Under the pieces are notes generated by a model, which was not told the DNA's origin, did not search any database, and saw only the letters and a program-made list of their open reading frames with translations. The position numbers were made by a program, and so were the translations under genes. Source: a virus (taxonomy: Duplodnaviria; Heunggongvirae; Uroviricota; Caudoviricetes). From it: a DNA stretch of 32,811 nt. This document shows positions 1-31,622 of the stretch, piece after piece (the stretch's first letter is position 1; every line of letters begins with the position of its first letter). The DNA lies in IMG/VR virus record IMGVR_UViG_2563366806_000002. One strand, written 5' to 3'.

Positions 1-981
1 TCACACCGCCAGCCCGCCGCCAAGTGGGTTTAATGTCACCGCGTGTTGCAGGTAATCGGGGGCGAGGTGAGCATAAACCATCGTTTGCTGAATGCTCGCA
101 TGACCCAGAATCTGCTGTAACGCGATAATGTTACCCCCGTTCATCATGAACCAGCTCGCGAACGTGTGCCGGAGCACATGCGTAGCCTGCCCGCGTGGCA
201 AGTCTGGTTTAACCTGCCTGAGCCGTTCGCAGAAGTTTTCATAATCAACTTTGAACAATGGCCCGGTGTCACTGGTCTTGATCTCCTTCTCCAGCTCTGC
301 CGATATTGGAACCGTTCGCTTTTTCCCGTTTTTGGTTTTGAGGAACGTCACACGCCCATGGTTAACCTGCTCACCTCGCAGGGTGCTGCCTTCTCCCCAA
401 CGTGCGCCAGTGCTGAGGCATAACAGCGCCACGCGCCGATCATCGCCGGTCAGGGTATCCAGCAGCTTGCTGATCTCTGATTTGGCGAGATAGGTCATAG
501 CTGGCGGCGCTTCTTTCAGTGGTTCCAATCCCTTGCAAGGATTCTCCTTCCTGAACTCATCCAGCTTAATCAACGTGCTGAACATGCCGGAAAAACGGTA
601 TATATCCCGGTTGATCGTTGCGGCGCTGATCCCGTCATCCAGTCGTTGGCTACGGTGCCGGGCGATGGTGCGCTTATCAAGCCGGTTAACTGCTGGATCT
701 CCCAACGCCCTGATTGTCTTTTTCAGGTGCCGCTTTTCTATCTCACCATTTTCCTGAGTCTGCCCATATAGCAGCCACCAGGTATCTAACAACTCGCTCA
801 ACGTGCGGCGGTCTACGCTCGCGCCAAGCCATTCTTTTTTATCAGCGTTAGCTAATACATAACGCTCAAAAAGAACCGCCTCTTGTTTCTTTTCAAATCG
901 CCTGCGGATGCGTTTTCCATTACGCCCACGGGGCCATACGTCTACTTCATACTGACCACCCTCGAGCTTCTTAATCGACAT
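1..981 (-). CDS. int: P2-like tyrosine integrase (stop codon at 1..3)
   Basis: 326-aa ORF with tyrosine-recombinase C-terminal signature (HVLRHTFASW...GHASIQQTMVYAHL); sits at the prophage end, divergent from cox as in P2. Confidence 0.9.
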   Translation of the reverse strand: MSIKKLEGGQYEVDVWPRGRNGKRIRRRFEKKQEAVLFERYVLANADKKEWLGASVDRRTLSELLDTWWLLYGQTQENGEIEKRHLKKTIRALGDPAVNRLDKRTIARHRSQRLDDGISAATINRDIYRFSGMFSTLIKLDEFRKENPCKGLEPLKEAPPAMTYLAKSEISKLLDTLTGDDRRVALLCLSTGARWGEGSTLRGEQVNHGRVTFLKTKNGKKRTVPISAELEKEIKTSDTGPLFKVDYENFCERLRQVKPDLPRGQATHVLRHTFASWFMMNGGNIIALQQILGHASIQQTMVYAHLAPDYLQHAVTLNPLGGGLAV

Positions 982-1047: not shown

Positions 1048-1356
1048 TTAGCCAGTTTTGCGGACGGAGCGGCGCGACGTTGCCGTAGTCTCTGACCCAT
1101 CAAGAGAGAGAGCCGGTTCAATTTGCCCGGCTTCTGGTGCGGTGTTACCGGTCATCAGCCAAAGCGTATATTTCGCAAAACGTGGGTTTTCGAGTATCAC
1201 CGCGAGGTAATCGCCGGGGATCTGCCTGCCTATAGATTCATAGTTTTTAAGGTTGTTAGCTGAGATACCTGTTATCTCAGACATTTCTCTTCGGGATAGC
1301 CCTTCCGCCTTACGCATGAGGTGAATTTTTTCACCGATACTTGTTTTTTGGATCAT
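1048..1356 (-). CDS. Immunity repressor, short HTH protein (P2 C-like)
   Basis: 102-aa ORF with HTH-like segment (LSRREMSEITGISANNLKNY); located between int and divergent cox; no peptidase domain. Confidence 0.75.
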   Translation of the reverse strand: MIQKTSIGEKIHLMRKAEGLSRREMSEITGISANNLKNYESIGRQIPGDYLAVILENPRFAKYTLWLMTGNTAPEAGQIEPALSLDGSETTATSRRSVRKTG

Positions 1357-1378
1357 ATGTGATCTAAACTCCGTGATA

Positions 1379-1398
1379 TTGGATTACATGTAATCCAA
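1379..1398. promoter_or_regulatory. Perfect 20-bp palindrome TTGGATTACATGTAATCCAA in the C/cox divergent control region; candidate operator
   Basis: Read directly from sequence; lies in the 120-bp gap between the divergent repressor and cox starts. Confidence 0.5.
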
Positions 1399-1476
1399 TT
1401 CGTGACGTAGTACACCCGCCAATATAAGCAGGTGTAAGCCGAAATAAGCGCCTAGCGCCAGTGGGGATTATGACAC

Positions 1477-1758
1477 ATGACAGAGAAAGAGTTAGAGGGG
1501 TTCATTGAAGTGCGTCATGCTGTTGACGCGGTTCCGTACCCGAAATTTGCTGAGCTGATCGGCAAGAAGCCCGCCACGGTTAAGAGCATGATTGAAGACG
1601 GTAAGTTGCCGATCATCCCATGGAAGAACCCGGAAAGCCTGGGCGCTCGTGCTGAAAACTGGATCTACATTCCTGAGTTCAACCGCGCGATGCGTGATGC
1701 GTATTACAACCGCCCGAAAGAGCAGCGTGATGCTTGGCTGCTGTGGATTGGTCTGTAA
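1477..1758 (+). CDS. cox: Cox-like excisionase / early transcriptional regulator
   Basis: 93-aa ORF; segments AVPYPKFAELIGKKPATVKSMIEDGKLPII and NRPKEQRDAWLLWIGL match recalled P2 Cox. Confidence 0.8.
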   Translation: MTEKELEGFIEVRHAVDAVPYPKFAELIGKKPATVKSMIEDGKLPIIPWKNPESLGARAENWIYIPEFNRAMRDAYYNRPKEQRDAWLLWIGL

Positions 1759-1770
1759 GGAGTCGATGAT

Positions 1771-1974
1771 ATGACGGGCCAGTTAATACAATTAAGCCGC
1801 CATAGTTATATTTATCGTGGCTTCACCATTCATAAATGCCCGCGCAATGCCATTACGATGAAAACGGCATATAGCGTTTTAAATAATGGAAATTATTTAG
1901 GGCGTGATTTTGCTTTAGCCGAAGCAATGAAAACCATTGATAAGTTAAAAAGCGGTGAAAGTTATGAAAGCTGA
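1771..1974 (+). CDS. Hypothetical protein, first gene of AT-rich insert
   Basis: 67-aa ORF in a markedly AT-rich stretch immediately after cox. Confidence 0.4.
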   Translation: MTGQLIQLSRHSYIYRGFTIHKCPRNAITMKTAYSVLNNGNYLGRDFALAEAMKTIDKLKSGESYES

Positions 1975-2137
1975 AATGATTATCGGCCTTTCTATTTTTG
2001 CTGTGCTGGTTTTGTATTTAATTCAATTCCTGATCAGGCTGCGGAGCGAAAAAGTAAAGCAGCAGAGAGCTAAAGCGCTTGCTGAATTTAAAACCCGCCG
2101 CGAAGAAGTAGAGCGCAAGGCCCGTAGACAACTGTAG
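1955..2137 (+). CDS. Small single-pass membrane protein with basic helical tail (start uncertain; ATG at 1964 or 1976 possible)
   Basis: Hydrophobic segment IIGLSIFAVLVLYLIQFLI then KR/E-rich tail; AT-rich. Confidence 0.35.
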   Translation: MKVMKAEMIIGLSIFAVLVLYLIQFLIRLRSEKVKQQRAKALAEFKTRREEVERKARRQL

Positions 2138-2149
2138 CAGGTACACGAT

Positions 2150-2377
2150 ATGAACGATAACGCCCCATCACTTGCCAGCCTGTTAAAGCACGGTTGCCAG
2201 GTCACGCACTACCGCAATACACGCGGCTGGATTGAATGCCCGGACGGGCGTTTCTTTAAACCGGAACCGAATAAGGTGCGCTTTATTAAAGGTATGAGTA
2301 AGCCTTTTGTTTATACGAAGAAGATAAACAAAGGCTTATTTAGTGCCTTAGCAAGTTTATTTAGAAAGCTGCTTTAG
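2150..2377 (+). CDS. Hypothetical protein
   Basis: 75-aa ORF, AT-rich, third gene of the insert. Confidence 0.4.
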   Translation: MNDNAPSLASLLKHGCQVTHYRNTRGWIECPDGRFFKPEPNKVRFIKGMSKPFVYTKKINKGLFSALASLFRKLL

Positions 2378-2463
2378 TAATTAAGTAACAGATAAAACTT
2401 TTTCTACCTGTCGTCACTTTATTAAGTGATGGCGCATTCACTCACCAAAAAAAGGGGTTAATT

Positions 2464-2895
2464 ATGTTTGGCATGTTCAAGAAAAAAACTGCTGCTGTAA
2501 AAGTTGAATTAAAGAAAGTTGAAAATCGCGATTTGATGGAGGCCATTGTTGGTGGCTGTCTGCTGGTTGCTGCTGCTGATGGTGAAATTGAGAAAGAGGA
2601 AACCGCAAAGCTCGATCAGCTGCTGCGCTCCAATCCCCGCCTGAGCCATTACGGCAACGAAATCACCGCACTGATCACCCGTTTCACTGAACAGCTTGAG
2701 GCAGGTTTTCGCGTTGGTCGCATGAACATCCTGCGTGAAATCGAAGATATCAAAAACGACCCGAAAGAAGCGGAGGAAGTCTTCGTCAACATGCTGACCA
2801 TTGCCGAATCTGACGGCGAGATCGAGCCGGAAGAACAAAAGGTACTGGAAGAGGTTGGGCGTCGTCTGGGCCTGCGCGTTGAGGATTACATCTGA
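2464..2895 (+). CDS. TerB-like (tellurite-resistance TerB family) protein
   Basis: 143 aa with two DGEIE(K/P)EE repeats typical of TerB-like helical proteins; RBS AAAGGGG upstream. Confidence 0.5.
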   Translation: MFGMFKKKTAAVKVELKKVENRDLMEAIVGGCLLVAAADGEIEKEETAKLDQLLRSNPRLSHYGNEITALITRFTEQLEAGFRVGRMNILREIEDIKNDPKEAEEVFVNMLTIAESDGEIEPEEQKVLEEVGRRLGLRVEDYI

Positions 2896-3077
2896 TGAGC
2901 CAGATGCTGAGCATGTTGCGGCCCGCGCTGGTTCTGCTGCTGGCTTTCATGGTGGTAGCGGTGGACTTCACCAGTTATCTGCTCTCAGCAGTAGGCGATC
3001 TGTTCTTCGTGGGGGCGCTCGTTGTTCTGGTATGGCCTGCAATTAAGCCAGCCAAAGAGCAGCAGGGCGACGAGTAA
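2895..3077 (+). CDS. Small hydrophobic membrane protein, translationally coupled to the TerB-like gene
   Basis: 60-aa ORF, two hydrophobic stretches; start overlaps the upstream stop (TGATG). Confidence 0.45.
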   Translation: MSQMLSMLRPALVLLLAFMVVAVDFTSYLLSAVGDLFFVGALVVLVWPAIKPAKEQQGDE

Positions 3078-3144
3078 GAGAGGCACCGGGAAACTGGTGC
3101 TTATCCGGGGCGTTACTTCCGAGTGGTGCGCCTGATAAGCGGCA

Positions 3145-3555
3145 GTGATGGGGGATAGGGTTATGAGTATCGGGCAAGAAAAACCAGTATCCGGGCGTCA
3201 GATGTTCCTTGAACAGCGCGCCCGTTTGCAGTCGAGCATTTCAGTTTCCCGCACCAATGACACGGCGAGCCGTTTTAATCGCCTGGGCGAGACTCAGAAA
3301 AAGGTGATCATCCTGCTGGCAAACGAAGCCGCGCAGCGGTTTAAGGATCTGCCGTCCCTGACTCATTCCCATCTCACTATGCCTTTCGAACAGTTCAGCT
3401 CTCAGGACAAAGTGAGCCTGATGTTGGGCATTAAGCGCCTTGCCGAGCTGGCTGCGGCGTTGCCGTGGGAGTTTCCCGATTATGCCGCGCCGCGCCTTGA
3501 AATTCAGGCGTTACGCGAATCACAACCACCCGCGCCGGATGGCGCAGTCAATTAG
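3145..3555 (+). CDS. Hypothetical early protein (start may be ATG at 3163)
   Basis: 136-aa ORF in the early operon; RBS GGGGGA precedes the internal ATG. Confidence 0.5.
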   Translation: MMGDRVMSIGQEKPVSGRQMFLEQRARLQSSISVSRTNDTASRFNRLGETQKKVIILLANEAAQRFKDLPSLTHSHLTMPFEQFSSQDKVSLMLGIKRLAELAAALPWEFPDYAAPRLEIQALRESQPPAPDGAVN

Positions 3556-5014: not shown

Positions 5015-5322
5015 TGTCAAAAATCTATATCGCTGGCCCAATGAGCGGTTTGCCTGGCTTTAATCGCCCGGCGTTTCACCGTGCAGCCGCGCACATTGTA
5101 CGGCGCGGAAATGTTGCTCTTAATCCGGCGATCCTGCCGGATGGCTTAGAGCAAGCGGAGTATGTGGATATCTGCCTTGCCATGCTTCGCTGCGCTGATG
5201 GCATCTTCATGCTGGACGGTTGGCAGCAGTCTGCTGGGGCAAAAGCAGAATACGCGCTTGCTGAAAAGTTGGGGCTGGATATTCAGCACCAGATGATTGA
5301 TCGGTACGTGGGCGCACGATGA
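5014..5322 (+). CDS. DUF4406-like (nucleoside 2-deoxyribosyltransferase-like) protein
   Basis: 102 aa, IYIAGPMSG motif; translationally coupled on both sides. Confidence 0.55.
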   Translation: MSKIYIAGPMSGLPGFNRPAFHRAAAHIVRRGNVALNPAILPDGLEQAEYVDICLAMLRCADGIFMLDGWQQSAGAKAEYALAEKLGLDIQHQMIDRYVGAR

Positions 5323-7928
5323 CCACCGCAGCAAGTGGGCGTGGCGCTCCAACGCCGCCCCATCCGTATCCGGGTAGCGCACCAGACGCCACCCGGTACG
5401 CTTACGAATGGCAGAAGCCGAAAGCTGCCATTTGTGTTGATAAGACTCCCGTTGTTGATCTAGTCGAGCTGGGTCAAGAACAGGAGTTTTTGGCGTGGGT
5501 GAAAGTTACCCTTGCGCCGCTACCTCGCTTTATTCGCCTGCGTCTGGCTTCCCGCATTGACAGTATTCACACCATGAAGGGCAGACACATCGCCCGTCTG
5601 GCGCTACGCGATATCATTCGCAGGGATCTGCCACCCATCAACATGGTTAATGAGCAATACGCTATTGCGATGACCGATGAGGCTGAATCTCAGGCTGATA
5701 CAGCATTCAAAGGGGTAAACCCGCTTTACCACACGTTTAACACTCTTCACGGATTGGTTGAGCGCTTTAACCGCCTGCCGGACTTCACGCCGGAAGATGT
5801 TGAGCTGCTGGCGCAGGATATTGCTATCTATATGCGGTCTGTGCTGAGCGAAGTTCACGAGACGGTAGAGACGCAGAGTGATCGCAAATATGCCGAATAC
5901 CTTTACACCGAAGCGGCTATCCTCGCGCGGCTTTTCTTCCTGACGCCTCCAAGCTGGGAAAAGTATTGCCGGGGCGCGCTGTTTATTGATGAAGCTACTA
6001 CCGGCATCAGAAAGATGCTGGATGATCGCTATTGGCACCGTAACCTGAAAAAGTACGCTGCGCGCTGGCGCGAGCACCTGCACATTGCCTTTGGTGACGT
6101 GAAGCGGGGCGCTGCACCGTATTGCAGTAAGCACCATGTTGATGAGTGGGATGCCAGGCGTAAACGTAGCCGCGCGATCATGGCCCGTCTTGAACTGGAA
6201 GACCAGGACACCAAAGAGCGCATTTCACTTATTGAGCAGATCGATAAGAGCATTTCTAACCCGGCATTGCGCCGCGTTGAACTCATGACCCGCATTGGTG
6301 GTTTTGAGAAAGTAGCCACCGAAAGCGGCTATGCAGGCCAGTTTTTTACTCTGACAGCACCATCCAAATACCACGCCTATACCGTATTCGGTCATCGTAA
6401 TGCCAAATGGAACGGTGCCAGCCCAAGAGCAACGCAGCGCTACCTTAACCGGGTATGGCAAAAGATTCGTGCTGAGCTTGCCCGCCGTGAAATTCCGGTC
6501 TTTGGCCTGCGGGTGGCTGAGTCACACCACGATGGTACGCCGCACTGGCACGGCCTGTTGTTTTCCCTGCCGGAACATTCCGCCGAGTTGCTGGAAGTTA
6601 TGGAAGACTACGCAACCCGTGAGGATGCGGAAGAATTACAAGGTAAACACGGCAACCAACCGCGCTTTGATATGAAGCCGATCGATCATGAAATCGGCAG
6701 CGCCACCGGCTACGTGGTGAAGTACATCAGTAAGAATATTGACGGCTACGCGCTCGACGGCGAAACGGATGACGAGAGCGGCAGGCCACTGAAAGAAACA
6801 TCAAAACACGCTACCGCCTGGGCATCGTGCTGGGGCATCCGTCAGTTTCAGTTTTTGGGCGGTGCGCCGGTATCTGTCTGGCGTGAGCTGCGCCGGTTCC
6901 GCAATCAGGAGCAGGCCGACAAGATAAACCCGCTGTTTGCTGAGCTGCACCGCGCAGCGGATGCTGGCGACTGGCAGCAATACACCAAATTGCAGGGTGG
7001 GGCGCTGGTTGCCCGCCGTGATCTACCGTTGCGCATCTGGTACCAGCAGAAAGAAGAGCCAAATGATTACGGCGAGTATCTGGATCTTATTAAAGGTCTG
7101 GTGATGCCCGCTGCTCACATCCCACCAATTGAAACCCGCCTGCATACCTACCGCATTGTGCGTAAGAAACCGGAGGTTTTAGACGACTCCGGGCAGGCCG
7201 TTGACTTTGATTTTGACCTTCGGGGCGCGTCCGCGCCCTCTAGGACTCGTGTCAATAACTGTACTGAGGTCAAAAAACATACAAATTCAGGGGGTGACAA
7301 TTCGCCACCAGTTGAGCCTGAACAGTATGAAATTGGTCAAATGACCCACGAGCAGAAAAAACGGCTCAATGAAAGCATCAGAAACTACAAACCGGAACGG
7401 CAAAAATCACCTGCTGATGAGTTTGAGGCGCTGGCTAATGCCATTACGGCATCAGATTGTGATGATATTGAGCAGGCCAGGGCGGAGAGCTATCTAAAAG
7501 TTGCTCAAGAATTGAGGCAGCAGGAAAGGGATATGCCTGCTGTTACCGCGCCAGCTCCTATATCAGCCGATCGCATTGCGGCACTGGATGATTTTGCCAG
7601 ATCAATAGGCATAGAGCTGAGCACAGGCCAGTTATCGTTATTGCTACGCGGTGAGTGTTTGCGAATTGATGGCTTTATTGTCTCCGCAACCAGTAGCGGA
7701 GAGCTGAGACGCAGAAAAGATAACAGCGCTGACCGGAAGACCGCCGATTTGTGGCAGCATATGAAGCTAAGTCATAATGTTGACAGCAGAGATATCAGGC
7801 ATGATCCCGTTGGCAGCTATGCGGAAATGTTGAAAAAAGCTGATCCGGCTGCGTGGGACAGGTTGTTTGGTACCAGGAATCAGGAGCAGCGCGTATGTTT
7901 GACGAAGAACAGCGAGAGCAGGAAGTAA
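5319..7928 (+). CDS. A: Replication initiation endonuclease (P2 gpA-like rolling-circle initiator) with long C-terminal extension
   Basis: 869 aa; HUH-type segment ESHHDGTPHWHGLLF and catalytic Tyr region YVVKYISKNIDGY. Confidence 0.9.
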   Translation: MTTAASGRGAPTPPHPYPGSAPDATRYAYEWQKPKAAICVDKTPVVDLVELGQEQEFLAWVKVTLAPLPRFIRLRLASRIDSIHTMKGRHIARLALRDIIRRDLPPINMVNEQYAIAMTDEAESQADTAFKGVNPLYHTFNTLHGLVERFNRLPDFTPEDVELLAQDIAIYMRSVLSEVHETVETQSDRKYAEYLYTEAAILARLFFLTPPSWEKYCRGALFIDEATTGIRKMLDDRYWHRNLKKYAARWREHLHIAFGDVKRGAAPYCSKHHVDEWDARRKRSRAIMARLELEDQDTKERISLIEQIDKSISNPALRRVELMTRIGGFEKVATESGYAGQFFTLTAPSKYHAYTVFGHRNAKWNGASPRATQRYLNRVWQKIRAELARREIPVFGLRVAESHHDGTPHWHGLLFSLPEHSAELLEVMEDYATREDAEELQGKHGNQPRFDMKPIDHEIGSATGYVVKYISKNIDGYALDGETDDESGRPLKETSKHATAWASCWGIRQFQFLGGAPVSVWRELRRFRNQEQADKINPLFAELHRAADAGDWQQYTKLQGGALVARRDLPLRIWYQQKEEPNDYGEYLDLIKGLVMPAAHIPPIETRLHTYRIVRKKPEVLDDSGQAVDFDFDLRGASAPSRTRVNNCTEVKKHTNSGGDNSPPVEPEQYEIGQMTHEQKKRLNESIRNYKPERQKSPADEFEALANAITASDCDDIEQARAESYLKVAQELRQQERDMPAVTAPAPISADRIAALDDFARSIGIELSTGQLSLLLRGECLRIDGFIVSATSSGELRRRKDNSADRKTADLWQHMKLSHNVDSRDIRHDPVGSYAEMLKKADPAAWDRLFGTRNQEQRVCLTKNSESRK
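7221..7240. other. GC hairpin (GGGCGCG-tc-CGCGCCC) followed by AT-rich DNA inside the 3' part of A; candidate replication origin
   Basis: Palindrome read from sequence; in P2 the ori lies within the 3' part of gene A (recalled). Confidence 0.35.
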
Positions 7929-8404
7929 TTGATTTCATCAGTAACAAAATTAAGCGATGCCGTAAGTGTGGTAACGAGCTGCACTACAAGGAAAAGTATT
8001 ATTTTAATGATCGCATTTGCTGCACCTGCAAGGGGTTAAAACCGTTTGACGCTCCCGAAGATATTGCTTTGTCTGAAAGCTGCGAGCCAGAACCAGCGCG
8101 GCTGGCAGATGAAGGCCATGATGCGCGAACCAGTACCGAGCGTGAGCTATTTAGCCGATATCCCGAATGGCAGTTGATGAATGAGAGGGCGGCAAAGAAA
8201 TGGCGTGAAGAGCATCCGCCTGAAGAAAGCAGTCTCCCATCTTCCCGATCAGCGGTAAATTCCGCAGGCCCATTATCTGTTGAGCGCATCAATGAGCTGA
8301 TGGCTAAATATGATGCCAGCGAAGCCGTGGATATCAGGCAGGAAGAGCTGATATCGCTGCTGTGGGAAGTGCTCTATCACCGCAAGATTAATCCAGTCTT
8401 CTGA
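7895..8404 (+). CDS. Acidic zinc-ribbon protein of unknown function (track ORF starts 7853; ATG 7895 with RBS AGGAGC more likely)
   Basis: CRKCGNELHYKEKYYFNDRICCTCKG Cys cluster followed by D/E-rich sequence; overlaps the 3' end of A. Confidence 0.5.
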   Translation: MFDEEQREQEVIDFISNKIKRCRKCGNELHYKEKYYFNDRICCTCKGLKPFDAPEDIALSESCEPEPARLADEGHDARTSTERELFSRYPEWQLMNERAAKKWREEHPPEESSLPSSRSAVNSAGPLSVERINELMAKYDASEAVDIRQEELISLLWEVLYHRKINPVF

Positions 8405-8610
8405 ATGGCAATCGTTATAACCTTCGCAACTTGTTGCGCAGGTTATGGCGATTCTGCGGGCGCGGGCGGCAAAGAGTCCGCAGCATCGCGAAGCGGTGCT
8501 TATGCTGTGTGCGTTTTTGGAAATGAGAGCTGAAACAATAATTTTAGTCATTACAGGCACTAATCTGACTAAGCCCATTTGGGTGACTAGTCAAATTTAA
8601 AGGAATAGAA

Positions 8611-8916
8611 ATGCCAAAAATGAAAGATGGGGATCTGCTTTATAAAGATTACGTTAACCACGCCCGATCAGCTGGTGACGACCCAACCAAGATTATTTCA
8701 GATGCCAAGCGCTTTAACAGGCATGAAAAGTATGAGGTGCTTGATTTTCTTAATGCACTGCATGGACAGAACGGGGCAGACCTCGCCATCAAAACACGGC
8801 AAATTTGTGAGTGGATGATTCGCACCTATCTGCCTGGCACGATTCAAAGCACAAAAGCTGTTGAATCATGGGTTGCTGCAAACTTCGAAGAGCTTTCTAA
8901 AAAGTATCCATATTGA
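8611..8916 (+). CDS. Hypothetical 101-aa protein, AT-rich stand-alone moron
   Basis: AT-rich ORF with RBS AAAGGAA, 200-bp upstream gap, and a strong terminator directly after. Confidence 0.55.
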   Translation: MPKMKDGDLLYKDYVNHARSAGDDPTKIISDAKRFNRHEKYEVLDFLNALHGQNGADLAIKTRQICEWMIRTYLPGTIQSTKAVESWVAANFEELSKKYPY

Positions 8917-20897: not shown

Positions 20898-22209
20898 ATA
20901 TTATGCCCTGCTAACCAATGTCGGGGCCGCGAAGCTGGCGAACGCTACGGCATTGGGTGAACAGGTTGAAATTACTCAGATGGCGGTAGGGGATGGCAAC
21001 GGCGCACTGCCGACGCCAAACCCTGCGCAGACTGCGCTTGTGCATGAGCTGCGCCGCGCGCCGCTCAATACGCTGACCATTGACCCGGTAAACACCAACC
21101 AGATTATTGCTGAGCAGGTGATCCCGGAAGACGTGGGCGGGTGGTGGATCCGTGAGATTGGCCTGTATGACAGCGACGGCGACATGATAGCCGTGGCGAA
21201 CTGCGCTGAAACCTATAAGCCGTTATTGCAGGAAGGTAGCGGACGTATGCAGGTTATTCGCGTCATTCTGATCGTCAGCAGTACCCAGGCGGTAACGCTC
21301 AAAATTGATCCGTCTGTGGTGCTGGCAACCCGGCAGTATGTTGATGACCAGATAATCCAGGTTAAAGCCTTCGTAGATCAGCAACTGGCGGCGCACATCG
21401 CAGCGGCAGACCCTCATAAACAATATGCACCCAAGGCAAGCCCGGCCCTGACGGGAACGCCTACAGCGCCGACTGCGGCGCAGACAGTGAATAATACGCA
21501 GATTGCCACAACGGGATTTGTGAAATCAGCAATTGCTGCACTGGTAGCATCATCCCCGGCTGCACTGGACACGCTGAATGAATTGGCGGCAGCGCTGGGA
21601 AATGATCCAAACTTTGCCACCACTGTAACGAATGCGCTGGCGGGTAAGCAGCCGCTTGATAGCACTTTAACTAATTTATCGGGAAAGACAGTTAACGGCA
21701 TTCTCCAATACCTTGGTTTGGGAGAAGGTTCGGCATTACCCGTTGGTGTGCCTGTTCCGTGGCCTTCAGCCACTCCGCCAACAGGCTGGCTGAAATGCAA
21801 TGGTGCGCCTTTTTCTGCCGAAGAGTATCCGGAACTGGCAAAAGTTTATCCGACAAATAAATTGCCAGATTTACGTGGTGAGTTTATTCGTGGCTGGGAT
21901 GATGAACGTGGTGTGGATAGTGGGCGAACTCTGCTTTCAGCGCAAGGAGATGCTATTCGAAACATTACTGGCGGTTTTGGTCAGTTGCGCGTAAACAGCG
22001 AAATAAATGCAATTGTTGATGTTCAAAGTGTGAGTGGTGCTTTTTACGGAGGTACCTCAGTCCGGAATAACATCAACGTATCTATGACATACGCTAATGA
22101 CCGAAATATCCGACAAGATGTTCACTTCTCGGCGGCAAATGTTGTTCCAACAGCAAATGAAAATCGTCCACGTAACATCACCTTTAATTATATTGTGAGG
22201 GCCGCATGA
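20887..22209 (+). CDS. H: Tail fibre protein (P2 gpH-like); GTG start; variable C-terminal domain begins near 21727
   Basis: N-terminus (ALLTNVGAAKLANATALGEQVEITQMAVGDGNG) matches P2 H; the C-terminal ~160 aa lie inside the candidate invertible segment. Confidence 0.85.
   Translation: MATKYYALLTNVGAAKLANATALGEQVEITQMAVGDGNGALPTPNPAQTALVHELRRAPLNTLTIDPVNTNQIIAEQVIPEDVGGWWIREIGLYDSDGDMIAVANCAETYKPLLQEGSGRMQVIRVILIVSSTQAVTLKIDPSVVLATRQYVDDQIIQVKAFVDQQLAAHIAAADPHKQYAPKASPALTGTPTAPTAAQTVNNTQIATTGFVKSAIAALVASSPAALDTLNELAAALGNDPNFATTVTNALAGKQPLDSTLTNLSGKTVNGILQYLGLGEGSALPVGVPVPWPSATPPTGWLKCNGAPFSAEEYPELAKVYPTNKLPDLRGEFIRGWDDERGVDSGRTLLSAQGDAIRNITGGFGQLRVNSEINAIVDVQSVSGAFYGGTSVRNNINVSMTYANDRNIRQDVHFSAANVVPTANENRPRNITFNYIVRAA
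21701..21726 (+). repeat. Candidate Gin/Hin/Cin/Pin-type inversion crossover site inside H (TTCTCCAATACC-TT-GGTTTGGGAGAA)
   Basis: 15-bp core TTGGTTTGGGAGAAG (21713..21727) recurs inverted at 23546..23560; right half matches the recalled gix half-site GGTTTTGGATAA at 10/12. Confidence 0.6.
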
Positions 22210-22811
22210 TGAATAAAGCTGTATTAAATAGTGAACTCATTGCCATAAAAGCGGGAGACATTATCATTTATAATTATGATGGTGAAACGCGTGAATATAT
22301 TTCTACATCAACTGAATATCTCGCTGTCGGCGTCGGTATTCCGGCATGTTCTTGTTTGGATGCACCAGGTACACATAAAGCTGGTTATGCAATCTGTCGC
22401 TCTGTAGATTTAAATTCATGGAAATATGTGCCAGATCATCGCGGTGAAATCGTCTATAGCACCGAAACAGGAGAATCGAAAGAAATCACAGCTCCGGGTG
22501 ATTATCCTGAAAATACAACCACTATCGCCCCGTTAACGCCATACGATGAATGGAATGGTGAGAAATGGGTGACAGATACCGAGGCACAGCATCGCGCCGC
22601 AGTAGACGCGGCAGAAGCACAGCGTCAGTCACTGATTGATACTGCAATGGCTTCCATTAGTCTGATTCAACTGAAATTACAGGCCGGGCGGAAACTGACG
22701 CAGGCAGAAACAACCCGGCTTAACGCTGTGCTGGATTACATTGACGCGGTGACGGCAACAGATACCAGCACCGCGCCGGATGTCATCTGGCCTGAACTGC
22801 CGGAGGAGTAG
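22206..22811 (+). CDS. Tail fibre assembly chaperone (gpG/Tfa-like)
   Basis: 201 aa; conserved Tfa C-terminal motif LDYIDAVTATDTSTAPDVIWPELP. Confidence 0.8.
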   Translation: MMNKAVLNSELIAIKAGDIIIYNYDGETREYISTSTEYLAVGVGIPACSCLDAPGTHKAGYAICRSVDLNSWKYVPDHRGEIVYSTETGESKEITAPGDYPENTTTIAPLTPYDEWNGEKWVTDTEAQHRAAVDAAEAQRQSLIDTAMASISLIQLKLQAGRKLTQAETTRLNAVLDYIDAVTATDTSTAPDVIWPELPEE

Positions 22812-30870: not shown

Positions 30871-30900
30871 AAAAGCCTGCCGGACAGGCAGGCTTATTGT
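30871..30900. terminator. Bidirectional hairpin terminator between ogr and the convergent downstream gene
   Basis: AGCCTGCC-ggaca-GGCAGGCT stem, A-run on one side and T-rich on the other. Confidence 0.6.
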
Positions 30901-31622
30901 TATTGCAGTTCTTTCAGTTCAACAATCTTACCAGTGGCTATATCTACTTTAGCGGAAACGGTGTTTTTTACCGTTGCCCCAAGAGCATTTGCGCCACGGA
31001 ATGTTGTCACAAATACTGCATATGGTTTTTTGTCTTTCTCAAACATTAATTGATGGGTGGTTTTGATATGTTTGTAGGATGAGTCATCGTTCATCTGTTC
31101 TTTGATCGCGACCTCTAAGGGGTAGTAGACGCCGTTATAGTCGCTCAGCATTTCATCGAAATTATCAAAATTTATACGGTCAGAAAGAGATGTTGCATCG
31201 CGGGTAAAATCTGAGTAACACCAATCAAGCACTTGATCGAGGTGTAGTTCTTCCGATTTTCTATGAGAATATTCGCTTAGGCAGTTGTAGAAGTCATTAC
31301 GTGCAGATTCAGGGATCTTTTTAAATTTAACATACGAGTTAACAATTTCGCGTCTGTCTTCCTTATCGTTCTTAACTCTCCATTCCTTTAGTGATAAATC
31401 GGCGTATTTAAATTTTTCTTCTTTAATCGGTGGGCGTTCTTGAGCGTTGCTTGAGGTAGAAGGGCGTAAACTGGCCCCTATTGCAGCAACGACTAAGCAC
31501 ATTGAGAAGTAGAAAAGAGACGATTTTTTTCTGTTTGGCATGAAAACCCACTTTGGATTTATAAGCCCGATCCAGAAAGCGATACCGGCTATCGCTGCAA
31601 TGATAGTGATGATTTTTTCCAT
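30900..31622 (-). CDS. AT-rich membrane-anchored protein of unknown function (candidate cargo/moron)
   Basis: 240 aa; two N-terminal hydrophobic helices then a charged soluble domain; strong RBS GGAGGG; clearly lower GC than flanking DNA. Confidence 0.6.
   Translation of the reverse strand: MEKIITIIAAIAGIAFWIGLINPKWVFMPNRKKSSLFYFSMCLVVAAIGASLRPSTSSNAQERPPIKEEKFKYADLSLKEWRVKNDKEDRREIVNSYVKFKKIPESARNDFYNCLSEYSHRKSEELHLDQVLDWCYSDFTRDATSLSDRINFDNFDEMLSDYNGVYYPLEVAIKEQMNDDSSYKHIKTTHQLMFEKDKKPYAVFVTTFRGANALGATVKNTVSAKVDIATGKIVELKELQ

Follow-up and report, generated by a model that had tools for sequence, protein, structure and literature searches.

A conserved Fil-type gene cassette directly behind cox in the early operon of a P2/186-like prophage

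Three small genes located immediately 3' of cox are best read as an early-operon, translationally coupled host-takeover cassette of the Fil type, in which Fil would block host division during lytic growth, an interpretation to which we assign a probability of roughly 0.7. The window (the whole stretch of DNA analysed, 32,811 nt) is a complete P2/186-like (Peduoviridae) prophage, and its bases 1400–2900 show 100% identity to the chromosome of E. coli ECONIH4, where the element is integrated between cpxP and fieF. On this identical locus RefSeq already carries the annotations 'DUF4761 family protein', 'hypothetical protein', and 'phage filamentation protein Fil family protein'. What had seemed to be an orphan AT-rich insert is, in fact, a conserved Fil-type early cassette, and as such it does not call for dedicated study as a module of unknown kind. 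The ORF list agrees with the preliminary description of this DNA in placing three ORFs of 67, 60, and 75 aa directly after cox, and the left end of the prophage is organized as follows.

1..981, minus strand: integrase, left end
1048..1356, minus strand: C-type repressor, left end
1477..1758, plus strand: cox (PF10743 Phage_Cox, E 9.9e-24; 'Cox family DNA-binding protein' in RefSeq)
1759..1762, plus strand: GGAG Shine-Dalgarno of ORF1, 8 nt 5' of its ATG, read from the sequence
1771..1974, plus strand: ORF1, 67 aa, ATG start, DUF4761 family
1964..2137, plus strand: ORF2 (p57), 57 aa, ATG start; the alternative GTG at 1955 would give 60 aa
2150..2377, plus strand: ORF3, 75 aa, ATG start, Fil family
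2378..2463, plus strand: non-coding spacer of 86 nt with a hairpin at 2409–2434, adjoining the cassette and not part of it
2464..2895: TerB/TciA-like gene, the next gene 3' of ORF3 and the spacer
2895..3077: DUF3927/TciB-like gene (PF13064 and phrog_1470 profile matches only)
3' of the TciB-like gene, in order: phrog_7428 protein, Dam methylase, three small genes
5319..7928: A-type replication endonuclease

The cassette begins 12 nt past the end of cox, which is the first gene of the early operon and has its stop codon at 1756–1758. The GC content of positions 1771–2377 is 0.425, whereas the window averages 0.535 (z = -2.47); no more than 3.1% of windows of this length have a GC that low, so the stretch is indeed more AT-rich than its flanks as first described. 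ORF1 has a GC of 0.377 and a GC3 of 0.353, against a GC3 of 0.628 in cox. The AT-richness is patchy, since GC reaches 0.515 in 2101–2300, and low GC continues into the 2378–2463 spacer (0.326). In all relatives the cassette has a GC of 0.41–0.46 compared to 0.52–0.535 for cox, and therefore this low GC is not a mark of recent acquisition by the prophage studied here.

The first two ORFs overlap, either by 20 nt, if translation of ORF2 starts at GTG 1955, or more probably by 11 nt, if it starts at ATG 1964. The latter is preferred because it is the PGAP start, because the family is nearly always 57 aa long (hence the name p57 used here), and because of a conserved upstream GGTG(A), which is kept at Shine-Dalgarno distance from the ATG among relatives while the in-frame upstream start moves from one to another. 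ORF1 ends in codons that already contain the p57 start (ATGAAAGCTGA), an arrangement suggestive of coupling by termination and reinitiation, and the p57 stop is followed by a 12-nt gap and then by fil. Translation would enter at the strong Shine-Dalgarno of ORF1 and pass to p57, and probably on to fil, by coupling. By analogy with P2 and 186, the cassette would be the accessory block next to cox in the early (Pe) operon, transcribed only together with cox from the repressor-controlled promoter, so that its proteins would be made together once the C repressor is lifted. Pe was not located by a consensus scan, the region of the 1377–1396 palindrome included, which is why expression from this promoter rests on the analogy with both phages. 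The same kind of scan found promoter-like sites inside the block at chance level (2 found, 2.4 expected) and terminator-like sites no more commonly than by chance, and Rfam gave zero matches in 1300–3200. The palindrome itself is a perfect 20-bp one (TTGGATTACATGTAATCCAA), located between the repressor gene and cox, and is likely the operator of the immunity switch.

All three ORFs are almost certainly coding and under purifying selection. Pairwise Nei-Gojobori comparisons among seven loci from five genera, in which synonymous sites were often saturated, gave dN/dS values of 0.10–0.33 for the ORF1-like genes (0.10 against Serratia L009), 0.06–0.39 for p57 (leaving out one closely related pair with too few changes), and 0.03–0.12 for fil. 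All of them are well below 1, and thus the segment does not behave as untranslated, conserved non-coding DNA. It could be argued that at least one of the ORFs is spurious and that the AT-rich DNA is regulatory or non-coding, given that the ORFs are short, that AT-rich DNA readily yields ORFs, and that the spacer after fil is itself conserved non-coding DNA. Nevertheless, the dN/dS range of 0.03–0.39 in divergent comparisons (with synonymous change saturated), the lengths of 57 and 75 aa kept across genera, the matches to curated HMMs, and an invariant p57 tail encoded by varying synonymous codons make this extremely improbable.

ORF3 can be assigned with very high confidence to the Fil family. 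It matches PF10893 (Phage_186_Fil) with 83.9 bits (cutoff 25, E 6.1e-24), nearly the same score as 186 Fil itself (84.1 bits), and also phrog_816, 'cell division inhibitor'. Direct comparison with 186 Fil by blastp, in a small database, gave an identity of 34.7% across 49 aa (E 7e-6), while hhalign of the alignment of 34 ORF3 relatives against 186 Fil gave a probability of 90.6% (E 1.3e-6). Both proteins are 75 aa long, share the N-terminal core PS(L/F)ASLL...H(Y/F)..GWI..DG..P...KG, and end in a hydrophobic, basic C-terminal tail, although their identity of ~35% is confined to residues 1–49. Together with the matches of ORF1 to PF15958 and of p57 to phrog_19198 (see below), and with the annotated identical locus, these results contradict the initial statement that the ORFs had no recognisable homologs.

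The place of the gene is also similar in both phages. In the window fil starts 392 nt past the cox stop, on the same strand and with only ORF1 and p57 in between, and in both 186 and the window fil is found in the early operon, a few genes past the Apl/Cox regulator and followed by a hairpin-containing spacer. The early lytic operon of 186 is recorded in the order apl-cII-fil-dhr, so the neighbors differ: the 5' ones are DUF4761 and p57 in the window and cII in 186, and at the 3' side 186 has dhr, whereas the window has the TerB/TciA-like and TciB-like genes and no dhr. P2 (cox-orf78-B-terminator-orf80...A) resembles the window in the overall layout of the operon, where small accessory ORFs separate cox from the replication genes and a hairpin spacer follows the first early block, but it has no Fil, DUF4761, or p57. 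We also considered P2 Orf78 as a Fil homologue due to a likeness by eye (MNEP..IAQLLRN and a basic amphipathic end), which was ruled out by an hhalign probability of 1.9% and no match to PF10893.

The GenBank record of phage 186 states 'fil: overexpression blocks cell division', and it is from homology with this protein that we infer that ORF3 would stop septation, the infected or induced cell then filamenting during lytic growth. The conserved core of the family comprises residues ~6–60 (PSLASLLK.GCQVTH...GW.E.PDGRFFKPEP.KV.FIKG..KPF.Y..KINKG). Residues 61–75 (nt 2330–2374) are predicted to form an amphipathic basic C-terminal helix with a hydrophobic moment of 0.56, and the last ~14 residues vary in sequence among members while being always amphipathic and basic (mean maximal moment 0.57 in 33 members). 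The membrane-targeting helix of E. coli FtsA, computed in the same way, has a moment of 0.57. AF2 models Fil poorly (pLDDT 60, pTM 0.25), with helix 61–74 as its part of best local confidence, and the Fil profile found nothing meaningful among PDB sequences. As judged from these sequence features, the C-terminal helix probably holds the protein at the inner face of the cytoplasmic membrane, the site of the division machinery.

Our literature searches found no paper on the mechanism of Fil. Phage cell-division inhibitors such as lambda Kil are small, non-essential early proteins that make the host filament, and this is the functional class proposed for Fil; no sequence relationship of the cassette proteins to other such inhibitors, e.g., lambda Kil, was detected. 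Kil acts by ZipA-dependent inhibition of FtsZ assembly (PMC3961180).

The middle gene encodes, as had been noticed, a single-pass membrane peptide with a basic tail. The p57 protein matches phrog_19198 over its full length (1–57/57, E 4.5e-33) and has a transmembrane helix at about residues 6–24 (nt 1979–2035; Kyte-Doolittle maximum 2.70), followed by a 32-residue tail with 12 K/R versus 5 D/E. This basic helical tail ends in a near-invariant RREEVERKARRQL. According to these features p57 is predicted to be a small N-out/C-in inner-membrane protein. The family alignment shows E4, G8, F12, I24, R25, and most of the tail as invariant, and the 13 C-terminal residues are almost invariant, yet there is synonymous variation at 7 of their 13 codons, indicating that the constraint is on the protein. 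The near-invariant cytoplasmic tail is probably a contact site for some partner of the host or phage, and p57 is most likely a second host-directed early factor alongside Fil; DUF4761 would be a further early factor.

The distribution of p57 is narrow. It comprises 140 clusters at 90% identity, nearly all of 57 aa, and at 50% identity no more than 12 clusters were found among 1.84 billion representatives; it is limited to prophages of Enterobacterales. A tblastn search against 50,697 deposited phage genomes gave zero matches, and hence its carriers are so far known as prophages only. The most distant members found by profile search keep the same architecture, a transmembrane helix and then LSEF.RR(E/D)EV.R..R..L, and the p57 profile found nothing meaningful among PDB sequences. 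Some relatives carry the source names 'geopilin' and 'PulJ', and for this reason a type IV pilin or pseudopilin was considered and rejected: the likeness is limited to a hydrophobic helix, the scores are far from the cutoffs (NCBIfam ComGE 18.1 bits versus 49; PRK10557 15 versus 120), and MKAEMIIGLSIF is without the prepilin motif G(-1)-F/M(+1)...E(+5).

ORF1 likewise belongs, very probably, to the DUF4761 family, PF15958 being matched with 38.7 bits (gathering cutoff 27) over profile positions 39–99 of 105, i.e., missing the N-terminal third of the profile, and phrog_2492 with an E of 5.5e-28. The conserved motifs in the family alignment are YRGFTIxKCP and YxGRDFALAEA, and the alleles of this upstream gene (66/67, 71, and 86 aa) have YRGFTI and Y.GRDFALAEA in common. 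The AF2 model, of moderate confidence (pLDDT 75.7), has four beta-strands and then one helix, so DUF4761 is modelled as a small soluble beta-meander-plus-helix protein. Its fold matches were generic and uninformative, the DUF4761 profile found no relatives among PDB sequences, and no paper mentioning DUF4761 was found in literature searches.

Positions 1903–2468 of the window are 89% identical to E. coli CFSAN051542 and the 5' two-thirds of ORF1 are not; the similarity ends inside ORF1, which thus contains a mosaic joint. The alleles of ORF1 are mosaic, and their variation goes along with that of the immunity region. This co-variation, and the fact that the slot right after apl in phage 186 is cII, could indicate that ORF1 and/or p57 are regulators of the lysis-lysogeny decision, stand-ins for 186 CII rather than host-directed factors. 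We find this quite unlikely: domain searches detected nothing DNA-binding in either protein, ORF1 is modelled as a beta-meander plus helix that yields only generic fold matches, p57 sits in the membrane, and switches of the P2 type work without CII.

The same gene order is widely kept. Presence among related prophages was checked, and in all ten independent p57 contexts examined the geometry is identical: a DUF4761-like gene, an 11-nt overlap, p57, a 12-nt gap, and Fil. These contexts include E. coli (CFSAN051542 and PCP06171), Serratia (L009, L021, and L023), Pantoea (L010/L011), Salmonella (L012/L013), Hafnia (L014/L015), and the assembly L022. The trio is directly 3' of cox in nine of them and, in Pantoea, 3' of another early gene. 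The junction ...TATGAAnnnTGA... and the spacer caggta(c/t)acgatATG are also conserved among relatives. The idea of an acquired module stands in so far as these are accessory, low-GC, mosaic genes of the early operon, but not as an insert private to this phage, because P2-like prophages from several genera of enterobacteria carry the trio with identical spacing, and the corresponding place in phage 186 is taken by fil.

In a second arrangement, which lacks p57, cox is followed by a 67-aa gene, then by DUF4761 with an 11-nt overlap into Fil, and lastly by a Dhr-like gene of 70 aa; phages phiT5282H and SEN4/5 have it, as do E. coli EcPF16 and MS 57-2. In the Senquatrovirus/Novemvirus representatives (SEN4/SEN5, phiT5282H) Cox is 97–99% identical to that of the window (hand count from the sequences), DUF4761 68%, and Fil 68–72%, and DUF4761 also overlaps the next gene by 11 nt. 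They differ from the window by the extra 67-aa gene 5' of DUF4761 and the Dhr-like gene after Fil, and since p57 is missing, DUF4761 is coupled directly to Fil. Other combinations exist: Fil without p57 appears in phiT5282H, SEN4/5, SI7 (where it comes directly after cox), and phage 186, and DUF4761 without an annotated Fil in P88-like phages and Klebsiella phage 3LV2017. DUF4761, p57, and Fil are accessory units that share one conserved slot and assort independently of each other. As for the Dhr-like genes, the 70-aa gene following fil in the p57-lacking relatives L002 (3583–3795), L003 (3520–3732), and L004 (4594–4806) resembles 186 Dhr, which inhibits host DNA replication (~30% identity over 65 aa), making a 186-like fil-dhr pair; in the blastp search against Dhr only these post-fil proteins matched, and ORF1, p57, and ORF3 did not.

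This assortment bears on the proposal, made in the preliminary description, of a small toxin or regulator set. The part that survives is that overexpression of the founder of the Fil family blocks division; what probably does not is the idea of a set, because no PADLOC match was found and the parts assort independently. In its most developed form, the trio would be a toxin-antitoxin, abortive-infection, or superinfection-exclusion module expressed in the lysogen, with the membrane peptide or Fil as toxin and a neighboring gene as its regulator. In its favor are the small size, overlap, and low GC of the genes, one of which encodes a membrane peptide, the growth-inhibitory nature of proteins of the Fil type, and the exclusion morons (old, tin, fun) that P2-like phages do carry elsewhere. 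We consider it unlikely all the same: ORF1, p57, and Fil gave zero matches to any defence-system model of PADLOC-DB at E <= 0.1, the block lies 12 nt past cox in an early operon under repressor control and has no more promoter-like sites than chance would give, the equivalent position in phage 186 has lytic-phase genes, and Fil, p57, and DUF4761 are found apart from each other, unlike an obligate toxin-antidote pair. The reading as a Fil-type host-takeover cassette of the lytic phase is preferred.

The Fil-type reading could be extended to a three-part module for division arrest and host takeover, in which p57 would be an unrecognised bitopic effector whose RREEVERKARRQL docks a divisome or envelope target, or Fil itself. 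Its mechanism would be distinct from those of FtsZ-directed lambda Kil, T7 Gp0.4, SulA, and MinC-dependent DicB, and the hairpin 3' of fil would be a regulated exit point. We regard this extension as tentative and on balance doubtful; the three genes, occurring apart as they do, need not act as one machine, and p57 may or may not cooperate with Fil. The residual interest of the cassette resides in p57 and DUF4761, tightly conserved in prophages of clinically common Enterobacterales, and in the target of Fil, small division-arresting phage proteins being useful divisome probes and possible antibacterial leads.

The spacer that follows fil (2378–2463) hardly varies among prophages of five genera, those of E. 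coli, Serratia, Pantoea, and Hafnia included, even though the downstream genes differ, and across these four it is more conserved than the synonymous sites of fil. Its hairpin (2409–2434) has ~10 bp and 8 consensus pairs, with an RNA fold z = -2.0, and one compensatory pair (T-A to C-G) is found in the phages of the second arrangement. It occupies the position of the phage 186 tR1 and of the P2 post-B terminator. Both of these have a hairpin and then GGGC(A/T)TTCTTTT, whereas the window has CACTCACCAAAAAAA and no T-run.

Beyond the spacer, the TerB/TciA-like gene has ~80% nucleotide identity to tciA/terB of the P1-type phages P1, P7, and D6. Together with the TciB-like gene it makes up a moron (2464–3077) present in P2-like prophages and P1-like plasmid-prophages, and found in only some relatives of this prophage. 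Three more low-GC regions were observed along the window. The lowest-GC island (0.394) is at 30900–31622 on the minus strand, between ogr and the attachment site on the fieF side, and encodes a 240-aa hypothetical protein without Pfam or PADLOC match, a candidate cargo gene. The stretch at 7895–8916, between the A gene (replication) and the portal gene, is likewise low in GC; it encodes hypothetical proteins of 169 and 101 aa, both without Pfam or PADLOC matches, and is the slot where P2 has morons of the old/tin type. Finally, there is a low-GC island (0.412) at 21950–22556, where the tail-fibre and tail-fibre-assembly genes meet, which is typical of exchanged host-range modules.
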